Positions 15,404-16,388 of a stretch of DNA of 64,000 nucleotides are shown piece by piece. Location: positions 2,076-66,075 of the forward strand of contig CAZIDM010000008.1 in the NCBI GenBank assembly GCA_964537915.1, written 5' to 3'. The DNA comes from an uncultured Dehalococcoidia bacterium (GTDB lineage: Bacteria > Chloroflexota > Dehalococcoidia > Lucifugimonadales > UBA1123). Both the position numbers and the translations under genes were made by a program. A model generated the notes under the pieces. The model worked only from the letters and a program-made list of their open reading frames with translations, ran no database searches and was not told the origin of the DNA. Each line of letters starts with the position of its first letter. The first letter of the stretch is position 1.

Positions 15404-15548
15404 GAGAATGGTGAATGTGGAATGGTGAATTAGCAATGTGGGGGAGTTACCATCTTTCTCAACGAATTCACGACAGTGCTCTAGTCGAGTTCAGCTATCC
15501 TCGAATGGTGCGAACTTCACCATTCCCTATTCTCAATTCCTAATTCTC
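15404..15548. repeat. Family F: two arrays of GAATGGTGAA-type units in inverted orientation (15404-15433 and 15503-15548)
   Basis: gagaatggtgaatgtggaatggtgaattag faces gaatggtgcgaacttcaccattccctattctcaattcctaattctc. The inner 8-bp hairpin is gaatggtg/caccattc. The same vocabulary occurs at 28724-28826. Confidence 0.65.
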
Positions 15549-16388
15549 GAGCGGGGTATCCGCTCGATTCGCCCACTCGCCCATCGAGCCGTCGTAGTTG
15601 CGGGTCCTGTCGAAGCCGAGGAGCCTCAGGGTGAACACTCCGTGCGCCGCACGGATGCCGCCCTGTCAATACGTGATGACGTTCTTGTCGGGCGTGACGC
15701 CTATCGCCTCCAGCATGGACGTCAGCTCGGACACGGGCTTGAACATCCGGTGGCGGTCGGACGTGACCAGGTTTAGCCACTCGAGGTGGACTGCGCCCGG
15801 CACCCGGCCCGCGCGCGAGTTGCCGCGGCTGTTGGAGCCGTCCCACTCGCCGTCGGAGCGGACGTCCCAGAACACCGTGTCATCGTTGCCGACCTGCCCG
15901 ACGCCGTAGTCGAGGGTGCAGACCAGCGAGTCGTCGGCCTTCGGGGTGAACGTGACGTCTCCGGTGTCCGGAGGGCGGTCTATCGAGGTCGGATGTCCCT
16001 CGTCGTACCACTTCTTCCAGCCGCCGTTCAGCACCTTGACGTTGGTGTGCCCGTAGTAGTTGAGCACCCACCAGAAGCGCGTCGAGTACAGGCTGCCAGA
16101 GTTGTCGTACGCCACGACCAGCGTGTCGTCTCCGATGCCCATGCTCTCCATAAGCTCCTTCATCACGTCCGGCTCGGCCACGAGGGGGTACTCCTGCGGC
16201 GCGCCCGGATAGTCGGGGTGCTTAATGTAGTGGTGTACCCGAATTCCAACCGCGTTCTTGATGTGCGCCCGCAGGTACAGATCGAACTCATCGCAGTCCA
16301 CAACGCGGACGTCTGGGTCGTCTATATGCTCAGCGAGCCACTCCGTAGTCGCCAGCAACTCCGGCCTGGCATAGTCCTGGTCACTCAT
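15540..16388 (-). CDS. Two-domain rhodanese (SseA-like thiosulfate/3-mercaptopyruvate sulfurtransferase) with in-frame TGA at the catalytic-Cys position (candidate selenocysteine)
   Basis: The track ORF 15666-16388 ends '...DKNVITY' at TGA 15668-15666. The same frame continues QGGIRAAHGVFTLRLLGFDRTRNYDGSMGEWANRADTPLEN to TAG 15542-15540. The total of 282 codons suits tandem rhodaneses. The TGA occupies the C of the Y-C-x-x-G-x-R active-site loop. Confidence 0.75.
15627..15665 (-). promoter_or_regulatory. Candidate bacterial SECIS-like stem-loop immediately 3' of the rhodanese UGA
   Basis: mRNA: UGA-CAGGG-cggca-UCCGUGC-GGC-GCACGGA-guguuca-CCCUG. It has a 5-bp outer stem, an internal loop, a 7-bp inner stem and a G-rich apical loop about 17-20 nt from the UGA. 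Confidence 0.45.

Follow-up and report, generated by a model that had tools for sequence, protein, structure and literature searches.

A conserved in-frame UGA as the predicted catalytic selenocysteine codon of a two-domain rhodanese in an uncultured Dehalococcoidia bacterium

Background

The 15 new selenoprotein families described from the Sargasso Sea in 2005 included a 'Rhodanese-related sulfurtransferase' (COG2897), which was represented by 3 sequences (PMC1088965). The 'Sulfurtransferase COG2897' of the Global Ocean Sampling (GOS) analysis comprised 1 selenocysteine (Sec) sequence and 8 cysteine (Cys) homologues (PMC2398784). The family is catalogued as COG2897/form 4, a PF00581 protein with the Sec motif UxxG and the exemplar MCY3690685.1 (PMC13188914). 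The gene considered here lies in a 64,000 nucleotide (nt) stretch of contig CAZIDM010000008.1, from an uncultured Dehalococcoidia bacterium; this whole stretch is referred to as the window. The gene encodes a tandem rhodanese on the minus strand (15540..16388) that is interrupted by an in-frame TGA at its catalytic codon. This stop is almost certainly a Sec codon, which makes the gene a mis-annotated member of the family described in 2005 and not a discovery.

Other rhodaneses with Sec are known. The single-domain COG0607 Sec forms 1–3 and the TsoB rhodanese/DsbD fusion have the rhodanese fold and carry Sec in or beside the active-site loop, as is predicted here (PMC13188914, PMC9312934). These are single-domain or fusion proteins with the motifs UxxS, CxU, and UxxxxU, whereas the window protein has two domains and UxxG. 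The NF041203 model (rhodanese_LYCAU), which is of the CxU, COG0607 type, scores 33 bits on the window protein against a cutoff of 115.

In bacteria, the Sec insertion sequence (SECIS) takes the form of a hairpin in the coding region. The published bacterial SECIS (bSECIS) model has an apical loop of 3–9 nt with G in its first two positions, an upper stem of 4–16 bp, a distance of 16–37 nt from the UGA, and a minimum free energy (MFE) of -7.5 kcal/mol or below (PMC13188914).

Results and Discussion

Gene structure and domains

The gene starts with an ATG at 16388–16386, with a Shine-Dalgarno-like AGGAG 8 nt 5' of it that was read directly from the sequence (16397..16401, minus strand). The first 240 codons end ...DKNVITY at the TGA (15666..15668). 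Beyond this the frame is unchanged for 41 codons, QGGIRAAHGVFTLRLLGFDRTRNYDGSMGEWANRADTPLEN (QGGIRAAH...TPLEN), and reaches the true stop codon, TAG, at 15540..15542. The read-through coding sequence is therefore 282 codons long, being made up of 240 codons, the UGA as predicted Sec241, and 41 codons before the TAG. The frame, TGA, length, and TAG all agree with an earlier interpretation made from the letters alone, here called the sequence-only reading.

In the joined 282-residue protein, Pfam identifies Rhodanese (PF00581) twice (E=1.5e-35). Two rhodanese domains in a chain of about 280 amino acids (aa) are characteristic of the COG2897 group, which contains thiosulfate sulfurtransferase (TST), 3-mercaptopyruvate sulfurtransferase (MST), and SseA. 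Alignments made with HMMER to solved tandem rhodaneses run from end to end, including 1UAR (2e-41), RhdA 1E0C (9e-35), 8K55 (8e-31), and 3HZU. The N-terminal domain (aa 14–129, 16002..16349, minus strand), delimited by the Pfam stretch and the PDB alignments, is catalytically inactive. It has Asp96 (VVAYD96NSGS) at the position equivalent to the Sec/Cys of the active domain. The C-terminal catalytic domain, with approximate bounds of aa 160–276 (15561..15911, minus strand), was delimited by the second Pfam stretch and the alignments to 1UAR, 1E0C, and 8K55. In these three structures the column of the TGA is occupied by the catalytic Cys (vvyCriaeRs, vthCqthhRs, and vayCrigeRs). The predicted active-site loop of the C-terminal domain is U241-Q-G-G-I-R-A, of which U-Q-G-G-I-R form the six-residue loop. 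The N-terminal domain lacks the catalytic residue, and the arrangement is that of a tandem rhodanese in which Sec is predicted to replace Cys.

The Cys-containing tandem rhodaneses of Thermus thermophilus (1UAR), Azotobacter vinelandii (RhdA, 1E0C), Mycobacterium (SseA, 3HZU), E. coli (SseA, 1URH), and cattle (1RHD) align over their full length with E values from 2e-41 to 1e-25. They share with the window protein an inactive N-terminal domain with Asp for Cys and a C-terminal six-residue loop ending in Arg, Ser, or Thr. The same double-displacement sulfur-transfer chemistry is expected of the window protein. The nucleophile is Cys in these enzymes but is predicted to be Sec here, and the UQGGIR loop differs from CRIAER in 1UAR, CQTHHR in RhdA, and CG[ST]GVT in MST. 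The loop is presumably nearer to the thiosulfate type (CRxGx[RT]) than to the MST type. With the NCBIfam equivalog model for MST the score is 107 bits, below the cutoff of 250 bits, therefore the protein is not an SseA orthologue. It has no signal peptide and is therefore seen as cytoplasmic.

Two domains, PF00581, and the U-Q-G-G motif, which fits the UxxG of the catalogue, make the window protein a member, by these descriptive features, of the catalogued COG2897 Sec family. Both are of marine and uncultured origin and both are bioinformatic predictions.

Conservation of the TGA and of the codons beyond it

When each GTDB species was scanned through one genome, 572 relatives were identified, compared with the 3 and 1 sequences of the Sargasso Sea and GOS surveys; the best 80 (L001–L080, 63–93% aa identity) were inspected. 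Most of the 80 are from metagenome-assembled genomes (MAGs) of Dehalococcoidia, SAR202, and Chloroflexota; others are from Ca. Entotheonella, Ca. Binatia, and 'Deltaproteobacteria'/Thermodesulfobacteriota, such that at least four phylum-level lineages are represented. The aligned codon is TGA in all 80 species, and in each it is followed by 41–45 conserved in-frame codons with the consensus QGGIRAAHG.F.L.LLGY...RNYDGSMGEWANR..TP. A chance nonsense mutation had been considered unlikely from the sequence, and this distribution bears that out. Four more distant forms (L089, L090, L091, and L093), one of them AT-rich, also have the TGA and a tail of 40–42 codons. In 11 pairwise comparisons of the 35 codons after the UGA, dN/dS (the ratio of non-synonymous to synonymous substitution) was 0.03–0.20, with dS up to saturation, which indicates that the tail is translated. 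The earlier view that the codons past the TGA are intact was therefore correct, and these codons are also conserved.

A protein search with the read-through sequence found 2820 relatives. Among the best 120 of these (90%-clusters, 92–62% identity), every cluster is 238–247 aa long, covers 85% of the query, and ends ...[IV][TA]Y, and none has the catalytic Cys. In a set of 150 representatives clustered at 50% identity, 21 (34–61% identical) stop exactly in front of the active site, and the four more distant forms are among these 21. The nearest Cys form is the full-length P0243 (50% identical), which has VTY-C-QGGVRAA at the TGA column. Other full-length Cys homologues read THCQAGIRAA (P0249) and SYCQAGVRAS (P0254). 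Together with the solved structures, these Cys homologues agree with the proposal of the sequence-only reading that the TGA occupies the catalytic Cys column. Two features of a bacterial selenoprotein are therefore present, these being an in-frame UGA flanked by conserved coding sequence, in the 80 relatives and the four distant loci, and Cys homologues at the same column.

TAT-TGA-CAGGGCGGCATCCGTGCGGC recurs unchanged in an independent assembly, made from a different read set (Logan SRR22586461). With the TGA conserved in the relatives as well, an assembly error or a nonsense mutation private to this genome is effectively excluded. UGA ends approximately half of the long open reading frames (ORFs) in the window, in these cases without a coding continuation. 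The conservation, the selection on the tail, the Cys forms, the independent assembly, and the use of UGA as a stop leave little place for a pseudogene, an assembly error, or a code reassignment. The prediction left standing is that of a classic Sec/Cys pair in the position of the nucleophilic Cys.

The hairpin 3' of the UGA

The sequence-only reading had proposed a SECIS-like stem-loop directly after the UGA, with an inner and an outer stem. The inner stem is upheld as a predicted bacterial SECIS core (15639..15655, minus strand). It has a 7 bp stem (UCCGUGC/GCACGGA) and the apical loop GGC, and it is located 17 nt after the UGA. The 17 nt core alone has an MFE of -9.9 kcal/mol. In loop length (3 nt), loop sequence, stem length, spacing, and energy it agrees with the published bSECIS model. 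Across 81 sequences, 97.3% of the cells of the inner stem are paired, and four of the seven pairs are invariant. The outer stem, CAGGG/CCCUG, was rejected, since only 79% of its cells pair, half of the sequences break two of the five pairs, and its pairing, equalled by 123 of 500 shuffles, does not stand out from that of shuffled sequence.

Constraint on the nucleotide sequence is evident from the synonymous sites. The mean third-position entropy of the 83 four-fold degenerate sites in the gene is 1.52 bits. Only those of codons 246, 247, and 248 (CGU-GCG-GCG) are below 0.5 bit, and all three are within the hairpin. The two-fold sites of His249 (CAC) and of Tyr240, just 5' of the UGA and UAU without exception, are invariant too. 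The frozen synonymous stretch covers codons 245–250, while the four-fold sites that flank the hairpin (codons 243, 244, 251, and 254) vary freely. Because the core hardly varies, this suppression at synonymous sites is stronger evidence than covariation.

A 13 nt core, CGUGCGGCGCACG (15653–15641), is identical in every Sec form examined (L001–L080 and L089–L093). It is kept even in the AT-rich and 34–49%-identical forms, and in at least four phylum-level lineages. The bSECIS elements are described as little alike in sequence, in contrast to this 13 nt core that is frozen across phyla. Such freezing of CGUGCGGCGCACG, which is unusual for a bacterial SECIS, could be due to horizontal spread or to a dual constraint on the peptide (R-A-A-H) and the RNA. 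The SECIS of the E. coli fdhF type shares with the window hairpin the position in the coding region directly 3' of the UGA, a stable stem, a small apical loop that starts G-G, and the 17 nt spacing. The sequence of the fdhF element is unrelated, however, and the window hairpin has a loop of 3 nt and no bulged U.

Selenocysteine and the alternatives

Very probably the gene encodes a cytoplasmic sulfurtransferase, a rhodanese with two domains of the COG2897/SseA-TST kind, with a catalytic Sec at UGA241. Judged from the comparisons above, the UGA is conserved and translated through, it is in the catalytic Cys column, and the hairpin is under selection at the nucleotide level. By analogy with established bacterial Sec insertion and rhodanese catalysis, Sec would be the inserted residue, SelB would bind the hairpin, and the substrates and selenium–sulfur (Se–S) chemistry would be those of the proposed mechanism. 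The hairpin UCCGUGC-GGC-GCACGGA, 17 nt downstream of the UGA, would act as a bacterial SECIS and recruit SelB·GTP·Sec-tRNA(Sec). The ribosome would then decode the UGA as Sec and proceed through 41 codons to the TAG. The enzyme would follow the usual rhodanese double displacement, in which the U241 selenolate would take a sulfane sulfur from thiosulfate, 3-mercaptopyruvate, or a persulfide, form an enzyme Se-S(-) intermediate, and hand the sulfur on to an acceptor.

Several results weigh against this reading. Within the 64 kb window, a Pfam scan of 30 proteins found no selA, selB, or selD, ARAGORN found neither tRNA-Sec nor any other tRNA, and no Rfam family reached its gathering score. A more permissive Rfam scan of 15450–15800 likewise gave no relevant match, as Rfam contains no model of such an element. 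The flanks of 60 of the related loci (L001–L060) have no tRNA-Sec either, with ARAGORN identifying only tRNA-Asn in a few. No NCBIfam model scores above its own cutoff for the rhodanese protein, which is therefore left with no equivalog name. No protein-level or selenium-labelling evidence for any member of the Sec-rhodanese family was found. The thermodynamic support for the hairpin by itself is modest: the 47 nt fold (-22.3 kcal/mol, z=-2.2) is equalled by 6 of 200 shuffles, and the 76 nt fold reaches only z=-0.65. The core is near-invariant, and the covariation amounts to one compensatory pair in two related genomes. This is a change from C-G to A-U, the sole two-sided change, found in two Entotheonella genomes at the cost of a Gly to Val replacement. 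Finally, the invariant core overlaps a peptide, R-A-A-H, that is itself fully conserved, although variation at its synonymous sites would still be expected.

The absence of Sec machinery from 64 kb means little for the genome. BSepDB, which admits only species having the Sec pathway, counts two MAGs of Dehalococcoidia, in which 49 and 46 genes for selenoproteins are listed, among the top ten bacteria (PMC13326102). The novelty for this lineage suggested by the sequence-only reading is therefore weak, as Dehalococcoidia are already ranked among the richest bacterial selenoproteomes. Most of the bins of sponge symbionts, which belong to various phyla, have SelA and SelB together (PMC5649159); this is in keeping with the fact that many of the rhodanese relatives come from sponges or the sea. 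A second gene in the window (44251–45411) with conserved recoded UGAs is indirect support for the use of Sec.

The simplest alternative is that the gene is truncated or a pseudogene, with a nonsense mutation at the catalytic codon that leaves an inactive protein of 240 residues or nothing. This would agree with gene callers, which stop at the TGA everywhere, and with the short public records that result. A dead tail would have decayed, however, whereas the 41 codons are under purifying selection and complete the rhodanese fold of the PDB homologues, and the TGA is conserved over the whole 63–93% identity range. Truncation therefore has a negligible probability. A sequencing or assembly error, or a TGC/TGT polymorphism, is just as improbable, having in its favour only that such errors are possible a priori; the TAT-TGA-CAG context recurs in the independent assembly, in 80 genomes, and in four metagenome contigs. 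The suggestion that a 240 aa N-terminal protein and a separately translated 41 aa C-terminal peptide reassociate has no support and can be set aside with similar assurance. Neither a start codon nor a ribosome-binding site follows the TGA, all of the relatives keep strictly to the frame, and the catalytic residue would be lost.

Read-through of the UGA without Sec deserves slightly more weight. The UGA could be read as Trp or Cys through near-cognate suppression, through mis-charging to Cys-tRNA(Sec), or through a reassignment of UGA in the whole lineage, and the hairpin would then only stimulate read-through. Structures 3' of a stop that stimulate read-through do occur in other systems. The Sec machinery is known for this lineage from the literature and not from the sequence of the source genome, which also favours this possibility. 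Reassignment is contradicted by the ORFs of the window, approximately half of which end at UGA. Only Cys or Sec would be workable at the nucleophilic position, yet a Cys codon is found there in none of at least 80 species. In addition, the loop sequence of the hairpin and its spacing both fit the bSECIS model, and the lineage is documented as rich in Sec. Both the non-Sec decoding and the role of the hairpin as a mere stimulator are therefore improbable, and insertion of Sec at UGA241 is strongly preferred.

The record of marine selenoproteome surveys that the sequence-only reading referred to, in which rhodanese-related sulfurtransferases are listed among the Sec families, was located in the three publications cited for COG2897 above (PMC1088965, PMC2398784, PMC13188914). 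Neither the family nor its Sec site is new, both having been on record since 2005, and no new question is opened.

Annotation and distribution

Gene callers cut the rhodanese just before its catalytic residue, and the resulting protein of 239–240 aa could not work. In public records (clusters P0001–P0120) these products are named 'hypothetical protein', 'sulfurtransferase', or 'thiosulfate/3-mercaptopyruvate sulfurtransferase'. Examples are MCI0438648.1 and MCH8186105.1, the latter a 'sulfurtransferase' of 239 aa. This is a systematic annotation error that affects hundreds of records from SAR202/Dehalococcoidia, Binatia, Entotheonella, and others. The truncated records distort reconstructions of sulfur metabolism for bacteria that are abundant in the ocean and in sponges.

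On the evidence of the aligned TGA, the Sec-rhodanese family appears to be far commoner than the early counts implied and to be fixed as Sec in several phyla. The contribution of the present analysis is modest and concerns this prevalence, the fixation of Sec, the unusually frozen SECIS core, and the systematic truncation in annotation. A family that is this widespread and strictly dependent on Sec would be a good model for what a selenolate buys in persulfide (Se–S) chemistry.

Gene neighbourhood

An arylsulfotransferase (ASST)-like beta-propeller gene (14276..15397, minus strand; PF05935/PF14269 by Pfam), with no signal peptide, is located 140 nt downstream of the rhodanese on the same strand. 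Of the 80 loci, 39 retain it there, as does the distant L089 (61% identical), the loci with this neighbour being L001–L025, L028, a subset of L043–L076, and L089. A luciferase-like monooxygenase, which in the window is at 18056–19189, is often found near the rhodanese/ASST-like pair. The Binatia, Entotheonella, and 'Deltaproteobacteria' loci have no conserved partner gene. It is conceivable, if rather doubtful, that the Sec-rhodanese is no sporadic Sec variant but is fixed throughout a large clade, with no return to Cys in at least 80 species of at least four phylum-level lineages and with a frozen 13 nt SECIS core, and that in SAR202/Dehalococcoidia it belongs to a module with the ASST-like protein. 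If this were true, the module would be an undescribed selenium-dependent step of organosulfur or sulfane-sulfur metabolism.

A second candidate selenoprotein gene

The second gene with recoded UGAs (44251–45411, plus strand) encodes a Sal/SLP-like aldolase of the thiolase superfamily, with the thiolase C-terminal domain PF22691 and two in-frame TGAs. A DUF35/OB-fold partner ORF is present at 45562–45987 on the plus strand. The first TGA (45097–45099, site 1) is within ...FAEFYD-U-YTILVAV... and the second (45352–45354, site 2) within ...LCMVNG-U-GGTASEMCSLVLGSEDTL, which is followed by a TAA. Read as Sec, the two sites are FYD-U-YTILVAVSLEDAGFVPK and NDLCMVNG-U-GGTASEMCSLVLGSEDTL.

Of the 120 protein clusters that match best, 78 carry a Cys at site 1 and stop at ...VNG, 29 stop at ...FYD, and 6 pass site 2 with Asn. 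At the DNA level, 74 metagenome loci with 49–83% identity were compared; the related loci of this gene are L081–L088 and L094–L176. Site 1 is TGA in 30 of the 74 and TGC or TGT in 37. Site 2 is present in 59 loci, as TGA in 57 and as Asn in 2, and is always followed by 18–19 conserved codons. Both sites are TGA in 26 loci. No homologue examined has a Cys counterpart at site 2. SECIS-like hairpins are present after both UGAs (-11.3 and -13.2 kcal/mol). That of site 1 has the loop CGUGA, 17 nt from the UGA, and is missing from the Cys forms; that of site 2 is found in two different registers in different clades.

The nearest solved structure (E=5e-80) is 9MYR, the bile-acid side-chain retro-aldolase CtSal of Comamonas testosteroni with its DUF35 domain. 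The catalytic residues of CtSal are Tyr302 and Cys304 in a YDCY motif; it has Gly where thiolases have their nucleophile, and its oxyanion hole is formed by Gly391 (PMC12329534). The window protein reads Y-D-U-Y, therefore site 1 corresponds to Cys304 of CtSal. Its residue at the nucleophile position is Gly (MQGASG), as in CtSal, and site 2 (VNG-U-GG) aligns two residues before the oxyanion-hole Gly. No thiolase-type family name is present in the selenoprotein catalogues searched, a search whose scope did not extend to the full family list of BSepDB. It is possible that the gene represents a new double-Sec, non-redox selenoprotein family, and this candidate is apparently uncatalogued and more novel than the rhodanese.

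No other recoded in-frame TGA was found upstream or downstream of the called ORFs in the window. The other extensions of ORFs past a TGA were rejected due to low GC content at third codon positions or overlap with neighbouring genes.

Other genes in the window

Two pairs of adjacent or overlapping ORFs on the minus strand look like toxin-antitoxin systems when their translations are examined by eye. Those at 26781–27311 (89 and 85 aa) are RelE/YafQ-like and RelB/DinJ-like, and those at 50700–51364 (134 and 87 aa) are a PIN/VapC-like protein and an antitoxin. The 768 aa protein encoded at 31210–33516 on the plus strand has three stretches that match CoA-transferase family III (PF02515, E=4e-145) and is apparently a duplicated or fused CoA-transferase. 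Its stop codon overlaps the start of a PMT_2 glycosyltransferase-like gene of 973 aa.

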